DNA from: a virus
Lineage: Duplodnaviria; Caudoviricetes
IMG/VR virus record: IMGVR_UViG_3300044492_000094
Coordinates: 1-35,611 of that record
Direction: 5' to 3' (one strand)
Length of the DNA stretch: 35,611 nucleotides
The notes under the pieces are model-generated. The model was not told the origin of the DNA. It was given only the letters and a program-made list of their open reading frames with translations, and made no database searches. Within the stretch, counting starts at the first letter, position 1. Each line of letters opens with the position of its first letter. The position numbers were made by a program, and so were the translations under genes. This document shows, piece after piece, positions 9,117-19,841 of this stretch.

Positions 9117-12100
9117 CTACTTGGTCCTTGCCTCTTGGCTCGGCCCGAGGAACAGCGCCACGGGGTTCTTGGTCTTGCCCTTGGCAAGCGCATAGGCACC
9201 CTCGACGGTGCGCTGGACCTGCGATGCCGGATAGTGAAACAGCGTGCCTGCCAGCTGGTTGGCCGAGCGCAGCAGCGCCGCGTCGACCTCGCCCTGCTTG
9301 ACCTGCTTGGCGAACTTGGAAACCTTGCCGAGCGCCCCCATCCCGGCAGGAGCGTCGCTGCCATAGGTGATCGCGCCGCCGACGTCGCGCAGGCCGACCA
9401 TCGTCGCGAACAGGTAGCCGACCCCCTCGAGCCCGAGCGCCTTGGCAAGCTCCTCGGGATCGTCGGGGATGTCGCCCTTCAATCCCGAGCGGATGATGTA
9501 GCCGAGCAGCGTGGGCAGCAGGAACAGCAGGAAGGCGTCGACCGCCAGCTTCGACTTGTTGCCGGTCAGCCGCGCCTCGCCGACGCTCTCGGCGGCGAGG
9601 TTGTAGGTCGTCGAGAAGTAGGAATAGAAGTTCGTCCACAGCTTCTGCAGCGGCCCTCCGCGCTGGATCGCGGCGAGGTCCTTGATCCCGCCGCCGCCCT
9701 GCGCGTCGATCACCGCCTGATCGGCGATCGCGACAGCGCGGTCGTGCTGCTCGCCCGCGTCGATCGACTTCTCGTACTGGCCCACCCATGTCGGGATGTC
9801 GGCGACCATCTGGGTCTTCTGGATCATCGAGAAGAAGGTGCCCTGCAGCGTCGAGATCGTCCCGCCCTGCTTGGTGATCTGGTTCTGGATCTCGCTGATC
9901 TCGCGCTGCATCGTCTGGGCGCGGGTCGCCATGAACGGCGACTGCTCGTGTATCCACTTGAGCCCGCGCTCCATGCCCTGCGCGTCGCTGCCCCAGCGGG
10001 TCATGCCGCGCGCCACCCACTTGAGCCCGATCCGCTTGACCGACTGGGTCAGGCCGAGCGGCTGGAGCAGCGCGGTCGACAGCGACCACCCCATCCCGGC
10101 GACGGTCATCCCGGTGCGCAGGTAGTTGACCCCGCGCTCCCAGCTGTTTGCCGCAGGGACCTCGCCCGCCGCCATGTCGGTGACCGCGCTGGTCAGCGCC
10201 TTGAGCACCTCGGGTCCGTAATATTGCCGGATCGCCGCATCGACCTTGGCGTGGCCGAGCAGCCGGTTGGCGTCGATCAGATATTCGTGCCACGCGAGAT
10301 CGTGGATCACCTCGGTCAGATGCTGGAAGACGACGCCGAGGTCCTTGCGCACCGGGCGCTTGACCGAGGCGACGCGCTCCTTGGTGTGGCCCCGCCGGGT
10401 GGTCGCCCGCGAGTAGAGCCCGCGCATCATCTGGCTGGCGATGTCGGCGGCATTGTCGGCCTCGGCGCGGGTCGACCGGCTCGGGTCATATTTGATCGGG
10501 TAGTAGCCGCCGGTCATGTCGATCGTCACACCATCCGCCGTGGTCACGGTGAACGGCTCGGCGGCGACCTGCTCGGGGGTGAGCCCGGTGACCCTCTGCT
10601 CCTTGGACGCGATCTGCGGCCAGTAGCTGCCGACATAATCCCACACCTGCTGGACGATCCCCCAATGCTCGGCGGTCAGGGTGGCGAGCACCGCGTCCAG
10701 CTGCGCCTGCGTCCAGCCGTCACCCTCGAGGACGCGGAGGCGATTGGTCGAATTGCCCATGTTGAGCGCGATCGCGATGCGCCCCTCGAGCGACAGCGAC
10801 CCGCCGATCTCGGGGATGAAGACATGCTGGTTGATCGGGGTCTTGCCGATCGTGGTGACCTTCTTGGTGATGACCGGCTTGAGGATCTCGGCGAGGCGCG
10901 CGGTGGCCTCGGCGCGCATCGTCGCCTCCTTGTCGCCCGCCGCATTGGCGGGACGGACGAGATATTCCCAGATCACCCCGCCGTCCTTGAAGCCGTCCAT
11001 CTGGCGGATCAGCGAGGCGAACTTGCGGTGCATCGCGAGGAACTCGTACCAGCCCTTCGTCGCCCTCTGCCATGTCGTGCGCGGACCCTCGAGGCGGACG
11101 CCGCGCTCGCTGACCGCGTTGGCCTCGACCGTGTCGGCGATCGCGGCGACCGCGATCGCGATCTCGCGGTTCTTCTTGGCGGTGAGCAGCTTCTTCTTGA
11201 GCTTGCCGAGGTGGACGATATTCTCGATCGCGTCGACCAGCCCCATCAGTTCGTCGACCGTCATCTCCTTGTAGCTGGTGCCGCGCCCGAGCGCCGCCGC
11301 CATCTCGGGGGTGATCACCGGCTCGAGCCCCATCGCGCGCTGCGCCTCGATCCATGTCGCGAGGCTGTTCGCGCTGTCGATCGAGCGCAAGGTCGTCGAG
11401 CGCCGCAGGTCGACCGCCTCGAGCAGGGTCCAGATCTGCTCGAGCGCCTTGCCGTCGATCGTCTTGGCAGCACCCGGTCGGCTCAGCCGCCGCAGGCTTG
11501 CGACCTTGCGCTCGACCTGCTCGCGGGTGCGGTGAGCGGCGCGTGCCATCTCGAGGTTGATCAGCTGGTTGCGCTTCTCGACCGCCGCCTCGACCAGCTT
11601 GTTCTCGCGGACGAGGCGCGCTGCCTCCTTCGCCGCCCGCGCTGCTGCCGCCTCGTAGGTCGAGGGCGTCAGGTTGCGCACCTTCAGCCGCCCGATCGTC
11701 TCGCGGGCGAAGTTCTTCGCCGCCGTCGCCAAGGTCTTGGGCTTGCCCGCGAGCTTCGACAGCATGTTCAACTCGGTCGCAACGAACCGGCTCCTCGCCT
11801 CGTTGTGGACGGCGGCGGCTGCCGCCTTGCGCAGCGCCTCGTCGCCGACCAGTTCGCCGTGCTGCTCGAGCATGCGCTGCTCGGTCAGCCCATCGATCTT
11901 GGCACCCATCTCCTCGGCCTCCATCACCGAGCGGATCAAATGATCCGCCGAGGTGAAGCCGAACAGTTCGGCGACCTGCTCGGGGTGGAGGCCATTGTCC
12001 CTCGAGAGCATGCCGTACTTGCCATAGCCGAGCGCCCGCTTGACCACCTCGACCGCCGCCGTGTCCTCGCCGTAGAGCGCCTCGAGTTCGGGGATCGAGA

Positions 12101-15100
12101 TCTTGGTCGGCCCCTCGACCGGCTGGCCCTCAAGCTCGCCGCGCGTCATGTAGAGGCGCGCGGCATAGACCGGCTCGTGCGCGACCTCGTCGGCGACCTG
12201 CGCGCGGATCTCCTTGCGGTAGATCTTGGCGAGCTTCTTGAGCTTGTTGAGTTCGCGCCCGAACACATTGTCGACCCAGCGCATGTCGGTCTGCGAGCGC
12301 GCGTCGAGTTCGCGCACCGCGTCGTCGGTCGCGTCGCGGTGCTGGCGCTGGTACTCGGCCCAAGCGAGCGGGTCGATCCCGGCCTTGGCCTGCGTCTCGA
12401 ACAGCGGCAGCATCGAGCGCTGCGCCTCCATCGTCGCGATCGCGTCGTCGGTCGCGAGCATCCGGTCGAACACCCCCCGGATCGTCTTGGGCGGGACGTG
12501 GCCGATCGCACGGACCCGCTTGTAGATCGAGACGAGCCAGCCCCGGAAGGTGGTGAACAGCCGCTGCGTCTCGAGCGACGGCGCCTTGCCCCGGTAGAGA
12601 TAGGCCTCGAACGAGCGCGCCCACTTCTCGTGATAGGGCCGCTGCTCGTTGAGGGTGAAGCCGCGCCACTCGTCGGCTGTAACCCCGAACCATTTGAGCG
12701 CCGCCGCCCAGTCGTCCTTGATCTGCTGCGGCGCGTTGGGGTCCTCGGCCAATGTGCGCAGCACCTCGAGGAAGAAGTGCCCGCTCTCGTGGAGGAAGGT
12801 CGAGAGGTTGGTCCCGTCGAACAGGGTGATGAGGTTGGTCGACGGCTGGAACGAGCCGAGCGCGCGGGCGGGGTTCTGGAACAGGGCGAAACCCTGCTGC
12901 GCCTGCGTCTTGAGACTGGGCGGGATCGTGAAGCCGGGGCTGGTGACCTCGCGGCTCTCGATCTCGTCCATCGTCTGCGTCGCGGCATAGTGCATGTCGA
13001 CCGCCGACTTGATCGTCTCCTTGTCGCTGATCAGGTAGAGCTTGTCCTGCGCCTTCTCGAGCAGCCCGGCCCACGACGAGACGTTCTCGGTCTCGGTGCC
13101 CATATAGTCCTTGATCCGCTCGACATCCTCCTCGGCCTTGAGCAGCGCCTCGGCGTAGCTCTCCTCGAACAGCGACGGGCTGAGCGATATGTCGAGCGGC
13201 AGCAGCATCCGCCGGGTGGTCTTCGCGGTCTCGGCTGCCGCCTTGTAGGCGGCGACGTCCTCGGGGCTCTGCTGCGCCGGGTCGAGCCCCTCGACCTTGA
13301 GCATCTCGACCTTGGCGCCGTGCGGCTTGAGCAGGTTGTTCGCCATGTTGACGAGGTTGCGGTCGTAGAAGCCGCGCATCCCCTGCCCGCCGATCTCGAG
13401 CCCCTCGTCGGCGAGCACGAACGGTGCGCCCTTGCGCGCGTCGTTGACCCGTGCGCGGGCCTCGAACACCTCGCCCTCGAGGTCGGTATATTCGGCGACG
13501 GTGGCACCGGCATGGTAGCCGAGGTCGGTGGCGAGGTTGACGATGCTCCTGCCACTCGCCGTGTTCTCGATGACGCTTAAGGTCTCGTCCCCCTTCGCCA
13601 TCTCCTGCTTGATCCACGCCCGCTCGAGGTCGGCGCGGTAGGTGTCCTTGGCGATGATCGCCGCGTCGAGCATCTCGGTCGCCTCGCGCAGCGCGGTCTC
13701 GCGCTTGGCCGGATCGCTGGACGTCTCGGCAACCCCCTCGACGACCCGCTTGGCGACCTCGGGTCCGAACGCCTTCTCCAGCTGGTCGGCGCTCATCACG
13801 AGATCCGAGATGAACGAGACGCTGGTCGGCACCCGCTCGGCGAAGCCTTGGTCGATCACGAAGTCGGTCGCGTACTGGTTGCCGAACTGGACCCGGTAGC
13901 GCCCGTCGTCGCGCTGCTCGGCGCTGATCGAGCCGACCGCACGGCTCAGCCCGTAGCGCTTGGCCTGCTGCGCGCCGGTCGTCCACGCCACCGTCTCGAT
14001 GCCGTTGTCCGCCGCCCAGCGGATCGCGCGCTTCATCGCGAGGGTCGGCCACGACGCCTTGAACGGCGCGTCGGGGATGAGGTCCTGCTCCTTCTGGCGC
14101 ATCTCGCTGAGATCGTTGATGACGTCGGCGCGGTAGCCGACCGCCTCGCGATAGGCGCGGACCTCGTCGACAACCGCCGCGTAGGTCACCCCGCCCCGGT
14201 CAGCCATCAGGTTACGGTCGATACTCTCGGCCTTCTCGTTGAACACCCCCGGCATGGTCGCCGCGATGTCGTACTCGAGGTTGCGCGCATAGCGCTCGGC
14301 CTCGCCCGGCATCGCGCCGGGGGCGCCCGCGTCGAGCCACGCCTTGACCAAATCCTGTGCCTTGGCCTGCACGTTGGCCTGCACCTCGGGCCACATTGCC
14401 TCAAGCTGCTCGTAGCGCGCCTGCTCCTCGGCGGTGCGCCCGGTATTGTAGCCCTTCTTGAGCCCGCGCTGGTGCCAGTCCGACTGGATCTCCTCGATGA
14501 ACATGACGTCGCGGCCATCGGGGGTCTTGCGCAGGTTGAAGCGGATATGCGCGATCACCGGCTGGTCGTTGTAATGGTTGGGGTGGTAGAAGGCGGTCTC
14601 GGGGTTGCCGCCCACCCCCTCGGGCAGGGTCAGCAGCAGTTCGCGATAGCCGGTCTGGAAGCCCTCCTCGAGGGTCCAGCCGGAGAACTTGACCGCGCCG
14701 CCAAGCTCCTCGGTGGCCTGATCGTAGAAGTCGGGGACGTCGTCACGGTGATCCTCCTCGGCTGACCGCCGAGCCTCCTCCTCCTCGGCCTCGACGTTCG
14801 CCTCATGATCGGCGTCGGCCTGCTCGCGCGCCGCCTCCTCGCTGTCGAACAGGTCGAAGCTGCCCTCGACCTTCCAGTAGGTCTGGCCCCCGTCCTCCTC
14901 GGCGGGCACCTCGACCACCCTCGGGTAGGGGACGAAGCTGTCGTCGAACTCCCAGTCCTCCATCTGCTGGGCGACCCACTCGTCCTGAAGCTCCCAGACC
15001 CGCTCGCTGATCGTGTCCTCGCGGACCCCGCCGAGCATAACCTCGTGGACCTGCACGCCGCCTTCGCGGACGAAGGCGAGAAGCTCGTCGCGCTGGACGA

Positions 15101-18100
15101 CGGTATCGCCCATGCCCTCGAGCCACTCGAGCAGGCCCATGCTGGTGATCTCGTCGATCTTGACGCCGGGCAGCAGCGGGCGCGGCTGGACCTGCTTGGT
15201 CTCGAACATCGGCTGGCCCTGCTCGTCGAGCTTGGGGACCTGCCGCCGCTTGATCTTGGGGTTGCCCTCCTTGTCGAAGCCCGGCTCCTCGATCTCGTCG
15301 CGGATCGCGACCTTGCGGGTAGTGCCCGGTTCGAGGATCGCAGCACTCCACTGCGCGCCGGTCATCGCCTCGGCGGGGTGGCTCTCGATCGCGCGCTCGA
15401 GCGGCGAGAAGAACCCGGTCGCCTCCTGATAGAGGATGTCGGGATTGGTCGGGCTGAACGCGCCGGTGTTGGCGATCGCCGATTTGATCTGCTCGGGGTA
15501 GAACGCGACATAGCTGTCGGTCGCCTCGCCGTCGGGGCCGACCTCGCCGATATTCTTGTAGACCAGCCCGTCGTGCCCCGCCGCCTTGGCCTGCGCCACC
15601 ACCTCGCGCCAGCGGTGGTCCTCGTCCTCGAGGAAGTCGCGGACCCGCATCGGGTTCTGGATGCTGAGATAGACCGGGTAGGTGACGGGGGTCTGATCAG
15701 CGGCGCGGGGTTCGCGCCCGGTGCGGAAGGCGTCGGACAGCCCGGCCTTGCCCTCTACCCGTATTGCGGCCTGCTCGGCGGTTCCGAAGTGGCTGTTGGG
15801 GTTGAACTCGCTGAAGTCGGCGAGGGAGCCGTGGTAGACGACGAGGGGCTGGCCTTGGTCGTCGGTGACCTTGGAGTTGCCGAACCACGCCTTGAACTCG
15901 GGGCTGTCGGTTTGACCCGTGGCGGCTCCTCGGGTGCCGGTTTGGGCTGCGCCGGTCGCGCCCTGCGCGAGCGTCTCGCCGCCATCCGTTGTGCCACCAG
16001 CAGGTCCTGTTCGCCCTGCGCCTCCCACGTCTGGTCCTCCGCGTCCAGCAGGTCCCAGTCGATTGTCGACAAGTCGTCGCGCAGCGTTGGCGTAATCTGG
16101 GGCTTCGTCGTCTTCATAGGGTGGGACCCCCTCGCCCTCGGGTTTCTTCGCCGCCTCGTAGAGCAGCTTCTCGGGATACCAGATCAGCGCCTGAAGGTCA
16201 GCCATCGTCAGGCTTTCCATGCCCGGCTGCTGGCGCAGCTTCTCGAGGCCGCGTGTAAACACCTTGCGCAGGAAGGCGCGCTCGTTGGCACCGGCGGGCT
16301 GCTCGACCTGACCGTCGAGATATTTGGCAAGCCCGTTGCCGAGCGTCCGCATCGTCTCGCCGCCCTCGAGCTTGTTGATCGCCGCGCGCCAGCCCTTGTC
16401 CTGCGAGCGCTTGGCGGTCTCGACCGCGAGCGCGTCGACCTCGGCGGCGGTCATCCGCGAGCCGAGCTTGACCTCGCTGCCCTCGAACATCTTGCGCAAT
16501 ATGTTGCGCTCGGCAGGGGTCAAGGTCGCGATGTGCGCCTTGATCTGGCCGCGCTTGGTGCCGATCATCTCCTCGTTGCGCTCGATCAGCGTGCCGCGCC
16601 AGCGGCCCACCGAGCGGACCAGCCAGCGGTCCATCGTCAGCCCGTCGAAATGCCCGTAGAGGTTCGAGAAGAAGCCGTTGCCGATCTTGGGTCCGAGGAT
16701 CGCGGCGCCGCGCACGATCGTGTTCTTGCCCTCGCCCGACACCTTGAGCCCCGACATCTTCTCGATGTCGCGCACCGTGTGCTGCGAGACCATGAAGTCG
16801 CGCAGCGCCTGCCACGATCCGAAATGCTCGATCATCTCGATGTACAGGCCGAGCCCCTCGTTGATCTTCTGCGCCGCCTCGCCGATCCCGATGTCCTCGG
16901 GGAAGTTGCCGTTGCCCGCCTTCCACGCCTCGTAGGCGGTGTTCGCCAGTTCGAAGTTCTTGTTCACCTTCAGCCCGTTGGAGGTCACCGCGAGCGCCCA
17001 TGTGAAGGCGAACTCGGCCTCGCTGCCGGGGACAAGCTCGGGGTGCAGCCGCTGCAGTTCGTTCTTCGCGGCGGTCACCGCCCGGTCGTACCAGCCGATC
17101 GCGTTCGAATTGTCCTGCACCGCCTCGACCGCGTCCTCGAACAGGAAGTCGGCGAGCCGGTCGATATTCTCGGGATCGAGCGTGGTCAGGTCGATCCCCG
17201 CCGCGCGCTGCGCTGCAAGGCTCATCTCCTGCAGCGCCACCTTGAGGTCGCGCCCGGTCTTGAAGCTGCCCGCCGTCGCCAGCTGCACCGCCTCGGCGAG
17301 GCTGGTTGGCATGTCGACGCCGGTCTCGACGCCGGTGCGGTCGGGCACCCGGCGCACCGCCTTGCCGTCGATCTCGGTCAGGTAGCGCGCGGCGGCGTCG
17401 GGGCTGAGCACGATCTCGCCCTCGCCGAGGTTGCCGATGATCGCCTCGCCGTTGCGGACGAGGTCGAGCAGTTCGCGCGGCGGGATGCGGAAGGTGCCGA
17501 CCACCCCCGGTCGGGTGCTGCGGAACTGCTCGGTCCAGCTGGTGAGCCCCGAGGTCGGGACGCCCCGCCCGCCGCCGTGGTGGAGCGAGGTCCGCATCAG
17601 TTCGGCAAAGTCGAAGGGCCGCTCGTCGGTGACCTCGCCATATTTGGTAAGGTGCTGGTCGTCGTCGGCGACGCGGGTCAGGACGACATTGCCGTCCTCG
17701 TCCATCGTGATCGTGCCGAGGCCGGGGAAGCTGCCGCCCTGCAGGCCGAGGTGCGGCGAATTGGGGTGGCCCCCCGGCACCGCCTCGTTGGACAGCCGTC
17801 CAAGCTCGCGCACCACGTCCTCGGGGGTCATCCGCTCGGACGGCGGTATCGGCGGGCGCGGCGCGTTCTGGCCGAACCGCGCGTGCATCGGCTGCGACTG
17901 GGCATCGGCGGCGCGCTGGACGGTCAGCGGCATCCGCGCATAGAGTTCCTTGGCGGTGATCCCGGCGCGCTCGGCCATCGTCGCGTACATCGCCACGACC
18001 ATGTCGGCCTTGGCCTCCTGCGCCCGCGTGGTGAACTTGCCGGTCGCCGACAGCATGCCCTGCAGATTGGCCTTGATCTCGTCGAGATCGGCGCGGGTCG

Positions 18101-19841
18101 CGTCGTCGGTGCGGGCACGATCGAGCGCGGCGTTGACCTCATCCCGAAAGGCAGTGCCCTCCTCCTGCATGAAGGTGTCGGCCTCGCGCATCGTCATGCC
18201 GAGCGGATCGGTCCTCAGTTCAGGGAGCAGCAGCGTCTCGGCGCCGGTGCCCGCGATCGCGGCGGTGAAGTCGCCGATCGGGATCGCGACGTCCGAGCCG
18301 GTCTGCTCGGCGACCGCGACGTGCGGCGCGATCAGCTGGGCGATCGCCGCCTGCTGCTCGGGCTCGAGGCTGGTCTGGGCGAACGCCTCGGCCAATGTGT
18401 CACGACTGACATAGACCGTCTCGACCGGCGACCCCTCGGCGGCGCTGGCGACGAACTCGGCGAAGCTCGCCGGGTTGCGGGTCTGAAGCTCGGACGCCTG
18501 CGCCAGCTTGAACAGGCTGCCGAGCATGCCTTGGGCGTCGCTGATCTGCCGCGCCTGATCGCGCTGCACCGCCCGGTCGATCGCCTTCGACGCGACATAG
18601 CTGGTCGCGGTCGAGCCGCCGACCATCACCCCGGTGGCGATCGAGGTGATGATCGCGTGCTCGACGATCTCGCCCGCATAGTCGTCGAAGCTCTTGCCCT
18701 TGTTGCGGTCGATCGACACCCACTGGTTGAAGTCCTGACCCAGAGTGGCGAACTGCTCGCCGATCTGCTCGGTCCACATCTGGTCCCAGATGACCTTGCC
18801 CCAGCCCTTCTTGCCGATCACGTCGTCGAGCAGGAACTTCTGCGGCAGGACCTCGGTCCCATACTCGATCACCGCGTCGATCGCCGACTTGTTGAACGCG
18901 CCCGAGAAACCCATCCCCGCTTCGCGCGCCTCGCTGTAGCCGGTCAGCCCGGCGCTGAGCCCGGCGAAGGCGGCGCCTGCCTGCGGGTTGCCGGTCACGA
19001 AGCTGACCGCTGCCGCGCCGATCGTCACCGGCATGCTCTGCGCGCCCGAGTAGATGCCCTTGGCGACGATGCTCTCGCCTTGCGGCGCAGCATTCTTGGC
19101 CCAGTCCCTGACCGCCTGCCGCGCCTTGACGAGGGGCAGGTCCTTGTACGGCACGTCGGGTCCGCCGAGCGCTGACATGACCCCGCGCACCGGCACGATG
19201 AAGTCGGCGAGGTCGGTGACGAACGCGCCGCCGGTGAGCGCCACGTCGCTGATCAGGTTGACCGCGCCGACGCCGAAGTTCTGGGCGATGCCGAGCGCGC
19301 CCTGCGGCCCCATGTCGTAGATGTCCCGCGCCGCCTGCGGCCCCTTGTCGACCAGCCACGCGCCCGCCTTCTGGCCCGCCAGTGCCGCGCCCGCGATCGG
19401 GTTGACCGCCGCCATGCCGTTGAGCAGCCGCTCGACCATGCCGAGATTGGCGGTGTCGTCATGGGCGATCGCGGCATTCTCGGGCTTGGCGAGGTGGCGC
19501 TGCGCGTTGGGCGCCCCCTCGAGATCGCGCTGCGCCTGCTGGACCCGGCTCTGCCGGTCGGCCTCGGCCTGCTGGTTGCGCACCGTCTCGACCGGCAGCC
19601 CGAGCGCCTTGGCCTGCCGCTGGCGCAGGTTCGCCTTGTCGGCATCCTCGCCGCCCCACATCCCGATCGTGCCCGCCGCGACATTGCGCTGGGGCGCGAA
19701 CATGTCGGCGGCGATCGCGTCATAGGGATTGTCGTTCGCCGTCGGCGGGGCGACCGCACCGGGCATCGGCGCGGGGCCGGGCGCCTTTGGTCCCGGCGCC
19801 GCCATGTCGGCGGCGATCGCGTCATAGGGGTTATCCGCCAT
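9117..19841 (-). CDS. Giant internal virion (ejection) protein / large polyvalent protein, 3574 aa
   Basis: Occupies the position of the last ejection protein before the tail fibre; contains ART-like, HhH-like, EEIQSD and HExxH (HESGH, 12777-12791) modules. Confidence 0.9.
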   Translation of the reverse strand: MADNPYDAIAADMAAPGPKAPGPAPMPGAVAPPTANDNPYDAIAADMFAPQRNVAAGTIGMWGGEDADKANLRQRQAKALGLPVETVRNQQAEADRQSRVQQAQRDLEGAPNAQRHLAKPENAAIAHDDTANLGMVERLLNGMAAVNPIAGAALAGQKAGAWLVDKGPQAARDIYDMGPQGALGIAQNFGVGAVNLISDVALTGGAFVTDLADFIVPVRGVMSALGGPDVPYKDLPLVKARQAVRDWAKNAAPQGESIVAKGIYSGAQSMPVTIGAAAVSFVTGNPQAGAAFAGLSAGLTGYSEAREAGMGFSGAFNKSAIDAVIEYGTEVLPQKFLLDDVIGKKGWGKVIWDQMWTEQIGEQFATLGQDFNQWVSIDRNKGKSFDDYAGEIVEHAIITSIATGVMVGGSTATSYVASKAIDRAVQRDQARQISDAQGMLGSLFKLAQASELQTRNPASFAEFVASAAEGSPVETVYVSRDTLAEAFAQTSLEPEQQAAIAQLIAPHVAVAEQTGSDVAIPIGDFTAAIAGTGAETLLLPELRTDPLGMTMREADTFMQEEGTAFRDEVNAALDRARTDDATRADLDEIKANLQGMLSATGKFTTRAQEAKADMVVAMYATMAERAGITAKELYARMPLTVQRAADAQSQPMHARFGQNAPRPPIPPSERMTPEDVVRELGRLSNEAVPGGHPNSPHLGLQGGSFPGLGTITMDEDGNVVLTRVADDDQHLTKYGEVTDERPFDFAELMRTSLHHGGGRGVPTSGLTSWTEQFRSTRPGVVGTFRIPPRELLDLVRNGEAIIGNLGEGEIVLSPDAAARYLTEIDGKAVRRVPDRTGVETGVDMPTSLAEAVQLATAGSFKTGRDLKVALQEMSLAAQRAAGIDLTTLDPENIDRLADFLFEDAVEAVQDNSNAIGWYDRAVTAAKNELQRLHPELVPGSEAEFAFTWALAVTSNGLKVNKNFELANTAYEAWKAGNGNFPEDIGIGEAAQKINEGLGLYIEMIEHFGSWQALRDFMVSQHTVRDIEKMSGLKVSGEGKNTIVRGAAILGPKIGNGFFSNLYGHFDGLTMDRWLVRSVGRWRGTLIERNEEMIGTKRGQIKAHIATLTPAERNILRKMFEGSEVKLGSRMTAAEVDALAVETAKRSQDKGWRAAINKLEGGETMRTLGNGLAKYLDGQVEQPAGANERAFLRKVFTRGLEKLRQQPGMESLTMADLQALIWYPEKLLYEAAKKPEGEGVPPYEDDEAPDYANAARRLVDNRLGPAGRGGPDVGGAGRTGPAGGTTDGGETLAQGATGAAQTGTRGAATGQTDSPEFKAWFGNSKVTDDQGQPLVVYHGSLADFSEFNPNSHFGTAEQAAIRVEGKAGLSDAFRTGREPRAADQTPVTYPVYLSIQNPMRVRDFLEDEDHRWREVVAQAKAAGHDGLVYKNIGEVGPDGEATDSYVAFYPEQIKSAIANTGAFSPTNPDILYQEATGFFSPLERAIESHPAEAMTGAQWSAAILEPGTTRKVAIRDEIEEPGFDKEGNPKIKRRQVPKLDEQGQPMFETKQVQPRPLLPGVKIDEITSMGLLEWLEGMGDTVVQRDELLAFVREGGVQVHEVMLGGVREDTISERVWELQDEWVAQQMEDWEFDDSFVPYPRVVEVPAEEDGGQTYWKVEGSFDLFDSEEAAREQADADHEANVEAEEEEARRSAEEDHRDDVPDFYDQATEELGGAVKFSGWTLEEGFQTGYRELLLTLPEGVGGNPETAFYHPNHYNDQPVIAHIRFNLRKTPDGRDVMFIEEIQSDWHQRGLKKGYNTGRTAEEQARYEQLEAMWPEVQANVQAKAQDLVKAWLDAGAPGAMPGEAERYARNLEYDIAATMPGVFNEKAESIDRNLMADRGGVTYAAVVDEVRAYREAVGYRADVINDLSEMRQKEQDLIPDAPFKASWPTLAMKRAIRWAADNGIETVAWTTGAQQAKRYGLSRAVGSISAEQRDDGRYRVQFGNQYATDFVIDQGFAERVPTSVSFISDLVMSADQLEKAFGPEVAKRVVEGVAETSSDPAKRETALREATEMLDAAIIAKDTYRADLERAWIKQEMAKGDETLSVIENTASGRSIVNLATDLGYHAGATVAEYTDLEGEVFEARARVNDARKGAPFVLADEGLEIGGQGMRGFYDRNLVNMANNLLKPHGAKVEMLKVEGLDPAQQSPEDVAAYKAAAETAKTTRRMLLPLDISLSPSLFEESYAEALLKAEEDVERIKDYMGTETENVSSWAGLLEKAQDKLYLISDKETIKSAVDMHYAATQTMDEIESREVTSPGFTIPPSLKTQAQQGFALFQNPARALGSFQPSTNLITLFDGTNLSTFLHESGHFFLEVLRTLAEDPNAPQQIKDDWAAALKWFGVTADEWRGFTLNEQRPYHEKWARSFEAYLYRGKAPSLETQRLFTTFRGWLVSIYKRVRAIGHVPPKTIRGVFDRMLATDDAIATMEAQRSMLPLFETQAKAGIDPLAWAEYQRQHRDATDDAVRELDARSQTDMRWVDNVFGRELNKLKKLAKIYRKEIRAQVADEVAHEPVYAARLYMTRGELEGQPVEGPTKISIPELEALYGEDTAAVEVVKRALGYGKYGMLSRDNGLHPEQVAELFGFTSADHLIRSVMEAEEMGAKIDGLTEQRMLEQHGELVGDEALRKAAAAAVHNEARSRFVATELNMLSKLAGKPKTLATAAKNFARETIGRLKVRNLTPSTYEAAAARAAKEAARLVRENKLVEAAVEKRNQLINLEMARAAHRTREQVERKVASLRRLSRPGAAKTIDGKALEQIWTLLEAVDLRRSTTLRSIDSANSLATWIEAQRAMGLEPVITPEMAAALGRGTSYKEMTVDELMGLVDAIENIVHLGKLKKKLLTAKKNREIAIAVAAIADTVEANAVSERGVRLEGPRTTWQRATKGWYEFLAMHRKFASLIRQMDGFKDGGVIWEYLVRPANAAGDKEATMRAEATARLAEILKPVITKKVTTIGKTPINQHVFIPEIGGSLSLEGRIAIALNMGNSTNRLRVLEGDGWTQAQLDAVLATLTAEHWGIVQQVWDYVGSYWPQIASKEQRVTGLTPEQVAAEPFTVTTADGVTIDMTGGYYPIKYDPSRSTRAEADNAADIASQMMRGLYSRATTRRGHTKERVASVKRPVRKDLGVVFQHLTEVIHDLAWHEYLIDANRLLGHAKVDAAIRQYYGPEVLKALTSAVTDMAAGEVPAANSWERGVNYLRTGMTVAGMGWSLSTALLQPLGLTQSVKRIGLKWVARGMTRWGSDAQGMERGLKWIHEQSPFMATRAQTMQREISEIQNQITKQGGTISTLQGTFFSMIQKTQMVADIPTWVGQYEKSIDAGEQHDRAVAIADQAVIDAQGGGGIKDLAAIQRGGPLQKLWTNFYSYFSTTYNLAAESVGEARLTGNKSKLAVDAFLLFLLPTLLGYIIRSGLKGDIPDDPEELAKALGLEGVGYLFATMVGLRDVGGAITYGSDAPAGMGALGKVSKFAKQVKQGEVDAALLRSANQLAGTLFHYPASQVQRTVEGAYALAKGKTKNPVALFLGPSQEARTK
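15755..16117 (-). CDS. Putative nested out-of-frame gene inside the giant protein (120 aa, acidic N-terminal half)
   Basis: GAGGGGG 9 nt before ATG; the alternative frame has G/C-ending codons while the main frame switches to A/T-ending codons over about 15900-16117. Confidence 0.5.
   Translation of the reverse strand: MKTTKPQITPTLRDDLSTIDWDLLDAEDQTWEAQGEQDLLVAQRMAARRSRRARPAQPKPAPEEPPRVKPTAPSSRRGSATPRSPTTKASPSSSTTAPSPTSASSTPTATSEPPSRPQYG
19701..19829 (-). repeat. 27-bp direct repeat (19701-19727 and 19803-19829) within two DNPYDAIAADM peptides
   Basis: CATGTCGGCGGCGATCGCGTCATAGGG is present twice at the 5' end of the giant gene. Confidence 0.9.

Follow-up and report, generated by a model that had tools for sequence, protein, structure and literature searches.

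How can a phage make a giant, enzyme-rich virion protein without harm to its own replication? This question is raised by a 35,611-nucleotide stretch of DNA (the window), which is the whole of a linear viral record estimated to be 82% complete. Its minus strand encodes a protein of 3,574 residues together with late virion genes for a head-tail connector (PF12236), the capsid protein GP7 (PF20911) and an M23 peptidase. A preliminary description had proposed that a small acidic protein is encoded within the gene for the giant protein, in another frame and between two effector domains, one of which it might keep silent. The features concerned are the following.

9117..19841, minus strand: host gene, encoding a 3,574-residue phage polyvalent protein with LPD22, a predicted HhH-fold domain, ART-PolyVal and, further on, a zincin-like HESGH motif
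16059..17312, minus strand: predicted HhH-GPD glycosylase-fold domain, residues 844-1261, ending in YEDDEAPDYANAA; model pLDDT 89.5 (23 sequences)
16127..16133, minus strand: Shine-Dalgarno-like GAGGGGG, 9 nt 5' of the nested ATG; anti-SD duplex of -11.6 kcal/mol
15755..16117, minus strand: nested ORF of 120 codons with a TAG stop, in the +1 frame relative to the 3,574-residue ORF
15998..16117, minus strand: conserved part of the nested protein, residues 1-40, with an MKTTK start within the YEDD motif, followed by an acidic core; predicted to be helical
15755..15967, minus strand: tail of the nested ORF, residues 51-120, rich in S, T, P and R, without conservation and overlapping the start of the ART domain
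15456..15863, minus strand: ART-PolyVal domain (PF18760), residues 1327-1462, E-value 2e-14, above the gathering cut-off

Polyvalent proteins of phages, as portrayed in the main text of Iyer et al. 2017 (PMC5512222), are giant multidomain late proteins with LPD22 and ART-PolyVal domains that are encoded near virion genes. The same combination is present here, with LPD22 at residues 65-144 scoring above the Pfam cut-off, and we class the host protein by its sequence as polyvalent, since several unrelated effector and LPD domains are joined in a product encoded among late virion genes. From this context, the protein would be packaged and injected into the host. The long acidic region that follows the ART domain (15420-13100, minus strand) gave a weak PHROG match (phrog_7348) and no Pfam family. 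The stretch around the nested ORF was found mainly in soil metagenome runs: 16 of the 24 runs share half of its words or more, 7 possibly being its own source, and there was no RNA run among the 24.

The translation of the nested ORF, its 120 residues, its TAG stop and its +1 offset were all reproduced as described, and GAGGGGG is indeed present at 16133-16127. The ATG (16117) lies at main codon 1242 of the host gene. The unusual main-frame codons that had been pointed out over the start of the nested ORF are borne out by a frame-specific plot, in which the GC3 of the main frame (30-codon windows) falls to 0.40 at codons 1246-1290, compared to about 0.93 (roughly 0.8-1.0) elsewhere in the gene. 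A- or T-ending codons make up 28 of the 49 main codons 1242-1290 versus 240 of the 3,455 outside the nested ORF, and it is only here that the codon-usage log-likelihood prefers the +1 frame (+1.44, versus at best -0.78 elsewhere in the gene). The same holds for the rare main-frame codons said to lie at the nested stop: the TAG (15757-15755) is formed by the host gene's only GTA codon, next to one of its 5 ATA codons; across 14 long ORFs in the window, GTA is used for 9 of 632 valines.

Closer examination revealed that the coding signal is confined to the first part of the nested ORF. Codons 1-50 look coding (GC3 of 0.85-0.86), whereas codons 51-120 show main-frame codon usage and read as the +1 shadow of a GC-rich main frame. 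As codons 1-45 alone are conserved, the functional part of the protein appears to comprise about 45 residues rather than 120, and the idea of a small acidic nested protein holds for this core but not for the tail. The core includes IDWDLL (16063-16046, minus strand), and its net charge ranges from -7 to -10 in 27 of 27 aligned sequences of the type described below. The Gly/Arg-rich character of the linker in the main frame would be explained by acidic GAx codons of the +1 frame being read there as xGA. The peptide was modelled as a single helix with low confidence (pLDDT 67), and no significant Pfam or PHROG family was found for the nested protein or for any of five standalone relatives. A second copy of the peptide was not found in this genome. 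Viral contigs gave no match when searched with the single peptide, and 5 loci when searched with the peptide alignment.

We examined whether the nested ORF is kept in homologous cassettes. Homology searches gave 288 loci; with the window included, 280 of 289 contained the domain end motif; distinct loci with sufficient flanking sequence numbered 124. The +1 frames were sorted by patterns defined after viewing the sequences, namely [IV]D[WY]D[LM] for type A and an AQ.QHD-like acidic motif for type B. By these patterns, 36 of the 124 loci, including the window, are of type A and keep the [IV]DWDLL core in the +1 frame, 76 are of type B, with a different acidic +1 ORF in the corresponding position, and 12 belong to neither type, although 6 of these 12 outscore all 351 control windows on the type-B profile. 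The conservation anticipated in the preliminary description was thus found. No nested ORF was evident in L194, L243 and L271, which form one HhH clade with a different following domain. The window peptide is the most divergent type-A member, yet it reaches 12.5 bits on a profile built without it, the best control window scoring 3.4. A homology between the type A and type B peptides had been suggested by eye, and was rejected because their profiles do not match each other (the window has 0.7 bits on the type-B profile). Several loci (L056, L065, L073 and their relatives, as well as L211) have a nested +1 ORF that extends 127-136 codons beyond the motif and seems to hold a second conserved segment; in the L056 group this ORF has a TTG start with a strong Shine-Dalgarno sequence. 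Three loci in which the main frame stops soon after the domain (L200, L235, L288) were considered as C-terminal toxins followed by a downstream gene, and were set aside as decayed copies with damage upstream as well.

Selection was assessed for a 25-codon core in 32 of the 36 type-A loci, the other four having been dropped because they lacked the upstream control motif. In this core, pN/pS was 0.28 in the +1 frame (95% bootstrap interval 0.17-0.44) versus 2.13 in the main frame (1.33-3.90), and the pattern was reversed in a control inside the domain (0.20 in the main frame, 1.32 in the +1 frame). Parsimony changes at +1 codon positions 1, 2 and 3 of the core numbered 75, 45 and 146, close to the 66, 36 and 149 counted for the control in its own frame. 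The +1 value was 0.33 without the five motif codons by which loci had been picked, and 0.34 on 14 thinned sequences. For type B, 14 hand-picked loci without a GNAT domain gave 0.67 (0.47-0.92) in the +1 frame versus 1.40. It should be noted that these intervals are optimistic, because they come from pairwise estimates on related sequences; the direction was the same in every test. The nested ORF is therefore under purifying selection in its own frame.

The start signals point in the same direction. The ATG lies within the YxDD motif (from TAT-G or GAT-G) in 34 of the 36 type-A loci, and in the remaining two an in-frame ATG lies a few codons further upstream. Taken alone this is weak evidence, as such an ATG is also present in 59 of 88 other loci. 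An anti-SD duplex of -5 kcal/mol or better precedes 79% of the 34 type-A starts versus 8% of 739 background +1 ATGs, to which upstream purine-rich Glu/Gly codons may contribute; the corresponding figure for 72 type-B starts is 64%, inflated by taking the best of nearby starts. No sigma-70-like promoter was found in 15700-16800. On this basis, the ORF lies wholly inside another coding sequence, in a different frame, with what appear to be its own start and ribosome-binding site.

These observations also bear on a different route into the +1 frame, namely programmed frameshifting that would yield a shortened polyprotein with the acidic tail fused to the HhH domain. Consistent with this, no stop interrupts the type-A +1 frame over the 32-90 codons that precede the motif and reach back into the end of the domain, and on the tree the GAC GAA codons of DDEA are unchanged. 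However, the ATG and Shine-Dalgarno sequence are kept in type A, and in 47 of the 76 type-B loci a +1 stop falls between domain end and motif, followed in 47 of 47 by a start codon at most 12 codons from the motif (30 of them ATG), an arrangement that favours internal initiation. Nor was there conserved RNA structure at the nested start (z-scores of -0.12 to +2.19, 6 sequences), and a hairpin predicted to mask the Shine-Dalgarno sequence in the window was discarded as it was neither better than shuffles nor conserved. We consider frameshifting quite improbable.

The view that no protein is made at all, the +1 frame being a relic, open by chance or the result of faulty assembly, draws on the occurrence of long chance +1 frames in GC-rich genes (L373 is an example) and on strain variants, which were few, of low depth (four runs) and mixed, with 2 of 8 distinct changed +1 codons being silent. 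Against it, relatives with only 52-57% identity in the domain keep both frames free of stops and conserve the +1 frame rather than the main one, and an independent assembly (X15 record 1) covers the stretch without gaps. We regard this view as still less probable than frameshifting, and the nested gene as in all likelihood real and very probably translated.

Which of the two flanking domains would the peptide belong to? The HhH-like domain that had been claimed upstream is corroborated by its predicted fold. The top 22 rows of a VIA-align comparison are all glycosylases or glycosylase-fold proteins (Z-scores of 11.3 to 6.9), headed by the 8-oxoguanine glycosylase 3n0u (Z 11.3, rmsd 4.1, 198 aligned residues). 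The best score is moderate, since for helical proteins the tool advises caution below about 13, and the assignment as HhH-GPD-like derives from the consistency of the list, not from the height of the score. Foldseek, a PDB sequence search and Pfam gave nothing significant for this domain, and the nearest named Atlas family is DUF7178. The Lys of GPKIG (residue 1052, domain K209) and the Asp of TMDRW (residue 1071, domain D228) are conserved in 91 of 92 aligned sequences, and they may, by motif analogy rather than superposition, correspond to the HhH-GPD catalytic pair. Rows 3 and 22 of the list, a queuine-salvage hydrolase and a DNA-modifying transferase, indicate that the fold is not limited to base excision, and the domain as a whole lacks a strong basic character (59 D+E versus 51 K+R). 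From its predicted fold, the domain may act on DNA. It is common (1,273 clusters at 50% identity, E-values up to 1e-30) and, among the 144 top representatives in which the domain end could be located, 139 carry it at an internal position.

The homologous loci connect the peptide to this upstream domain. When 110 loci were placed on a domain tree, the type-A loci, 28 in number, all fell into a single clade of 30 (support 0.81). The other two members, L008 and L076, are the nearest relatives of the window in the HhH domain; they are without DWDLL and carry B-like ORFs. A reverse search with a DNA pattern for the peptide gave 32 loci, 30 of which have the HhH end upstream, while one was too short and one, L452, was without it. 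Part of this linkage is trivial, because the start of the peptide overlaps the last codons of the domain. The domain that follows the type-A peptide varies: it is zincin-like in 26 loci, unrelated in L183 and L193, and ART in the window only. Since the core thus accompanies the HhH domain regardless of which of four downstream domains comes next, a partnership with ART is unlikely. A peptide devoted to ART would fit a nested ORF that runs into the ART region and whose stop is made by rare main-frame codons, but ART follows the peptide in none of the other type-A loci, codon usage in the tail is that of the main frame, and inspection by eye of the 34 ART homologue loci displayed, out of 53, revealed no conserved +1 peptide. 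We consider a pairing with ART scarcely tenable, the least probable of the readings weighed here. The location between two effector domains had been described correctly, and the association is with the upstream one.

The exception, L452, is a near copy of L001 (91-94% identical on both sides) in which the HhH domain is gone and the peptide core is kept. The whole domain (about 879-2244 in L001) is cleanly lost, the two sides overlapping by 8 bases where they meet, and the main frame is preserved. This represents either excision of the domain as a cassette or mis-assembly, and it speaks against strict coupling unless the loss is too recent for the peptide to have decayed. With this one exception, the sequences indicate a small ORF (less than 150 codons) placed directly after an effector domain and moving with it.

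L452 also agrees with the idea that the peptide is an independent anti-host effector, for instance a DNA mimic acting on host restriction or repair enzymes, that merely rides in a linker tolerant to change. Acidic helical peptides would suit DNA mimicry, and one conserved domain is accompanied by peptides as different as types A and B; if both were inhibitors, this domain would have two inhibitors unlike each other. On the other hand, the type of peptide tracks the clade to which the adjacent domain belongs (one HhH clade has 30 members, of which 28 are of type A), while another type described below (HPGLTREEA) tracks a GNAT domain whatever lies upstream, and late expression from a virion gene would fit poorly with an early anti-restriction role. 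An independent effector is, in our estimation, improbable.

Instead, we propose that the nested acidic peptide is a cognate inhibitor of the adjacent predicted HhH-glycosylase-like domain during phage development, a reading we hold as evenly balanced between right and wrong. An immunity gene cannot be placed downstream of a domain that is internal to a polyprotein, so the partner of such a domain would be written into the linker. Ribosomes would initiate internally on the late polyprotein mRNA and so produce peptide and polyprotein at the same time. The acidic helix of the peptide (core net charge of about -8) would occupy the DNA-binding cleft of the HhH-like domain, and this presumably base-excising domain would thus be kept off phage and host DNA during replication and assembly. 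If the peptide is unpackaged or lost, the injected domain would be free in the next host. Domain and partner would move as one cassette.

The evidence for a real and linked gene is equally compatible with a positive partner, that is, a chaperone, an activator or an aid to processing or packaging of the adjacent domain or the polyprotein. Ugi, Ocr and ArdA are small acidic DNA-mimic inhibitors that are encoded by free-standing genes and target host enzymes, Ugi inhibiting a DNA glycosylase. The nested peptide resembles them in being small and strongly acidic, and differs in being shorter, in its predicted single helix and in having no Pfam or PHROG match. Given this resemblance, a short helix of strong acidity, encoded next to a predicted DNA-acting enzyme, looks more like an inhibitor than like a positive partner. 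GNAT cassettes, with a conserved helical +1 peptide of their own before the domain, are arranged as would be expected for a domain-specific chaperone, but the solo GNAT of Streptomyces phage Amela, the one example examined, has no such ORF before it. All in all, a positive partner seems to us rather unlikely, though less so than an anti-host effector.

The GNAT cassettes came from a separate, independent search that gave 573 relatives, of which 80 were fetched (L290-L369) and 46 were distinct and usable. A +1 stretch of at least 60 codons ending right before the GNAT domain is present in 46 of 46 loci, versus 5 of 46 in the +2 frame, and shifted +1 control windows had a long stretch in 9, 12, 14 and 17 of 43-46 loci. 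At 23 of the 46 loci the +1 ORF is present without an HhH domain before the GNAT. This ORF, located about 65-95 codons before the DIVSVF motif, ends in DPIE.AM..HPGLTREEA.EM...FGF*, and its pN/pS was 0.61 versus 1.15 in the main frame (23 thinned sequences). The HPGLTREEA...GF* ending also occurs in type-B ORFs followed by a GNAT domain; by rough patterns, it is present in 37 of 42 loci with GNAT downstream versus 3 of 68 loci without. The linker between adjacent HhH and GNAT domains is spanned by a single ORF that starts with AQ.QHD and has an HPGLTREEA-type end. These findings suggest a wider scheme, in which two-frame cassettes make up virion proteins of the polyvalent and MuF type: every harmful internal enzyme domain (HhH, GNAT) would have its own immunity peptide in the +1 frame of the linker, and double peptides would be fused where such domains meet. 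We advance this scheme tentatively, with somewhat less confidence than the inhibitor itself.

That standard annotation misses nested genes of this kind, as had been predicted, is evident from cultured phages. Limnohabitans phage DC33 has an unannotated +1 ORF of 71 residues (PQ492659.1 27781-27566, minus strand; L423:2780-2995) inside the giant gene XLZ15523.1, between an HhH-like and a GNAT domain. The record of this phage gives its taxonomy as Inoviridae, which fits poorly with a 39-kb genome carrying XLZ15523.1. Microbacterium phage Barnstormer has an unannotated acidic +1 ORF of 47 residues (OQ190478.1 4601-4744; L424:968-1111) inside a minor capsid protein gene, right before GNAT, with a sequence unlike the HPGLT type.

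Nested genes as such are already known. In phage lambda, Rz1 is nested in Rz, and the hidden HNH gene in the ShiLan insertion is reportedly another same-strand nested gene. Further same-strand cases (PMC11230408) are gndA in gnd of E. coli and comS in srfA of B. subtilis. All four, like the present ORF, are frameshifted small reading frames that lie in a larger coding sequence and have a start of their own, whereas none is a modular partner of a mobile effector domain that recurs across domain families. In the polymorphic toxin-immunity pairs of MuF proteins (Jamet et al. 2017, PMC5576092), the toxin is C-terminal and a small ORF follows its stop. The likeness lies in a phage virion protein with an effector domain and a small ORF directly after this domain; the difference is that here the domain is internal and the small ORF lies wholly inside the gene, in another frame. 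RpnS (Zhong et al., PMC10327210) is an in-frame product of an internal start that equals the C-terminal domain of Rpn, a bacterial defence system. It likewise is a small protein made by internal initiation in a gene for a DNA-acting protein, but our nested peptide is out of frame (+1) and unrelated in sequence to its host protein. By analogy, the proposed pair would work like a MuF pair or the Rpn antitoxin, yet it departs from a defining feature of each, as the domain is internal and the partner out of frame.

In the main text of PMC5512222, nested partner genes or an HhH-glycosylase domain of this kind were not found: the words 'overlap', 'linker' and 'glycosylase' occur 0 times, the passages with 'nested', 'immunity' and 'antitoxin' concern other matters, and Ocr and ArdA are named. 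A description of nested partner genes in polyvalent-protein linkers was also not found in full-text literature searches, which cover neither subscription journals nor supplements. If the two-frame scheme is true, the Gly/Arg-rich linkers of giant phage proteins hold a hidden, unannotated layer of antitoxin genes and, since the HhH-like domain is so widespread, many genes would be absent from annotation. The proposal offers a testable answer to the question with which we began, and to that of how effector domains shuffle between phages with their control attached. The presence of a nested partner would also be a way to predict active effectors among uncharacterised domains and a practical route to their cloning, and the clade of L194, L243 and L271 provides a natural control for domain activity.

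Lastly, 156 small standalone proteins match the peptide profile. They are mostly gene calls on short contigs and do not constitute independent evidence of expression. One of them, P0016 (WP_368343672.1), from the cultured bacterium Pelagovum sp. HNIBRBA483, is a type-A peptide annotated as a hypothetical protein of 54 residues.
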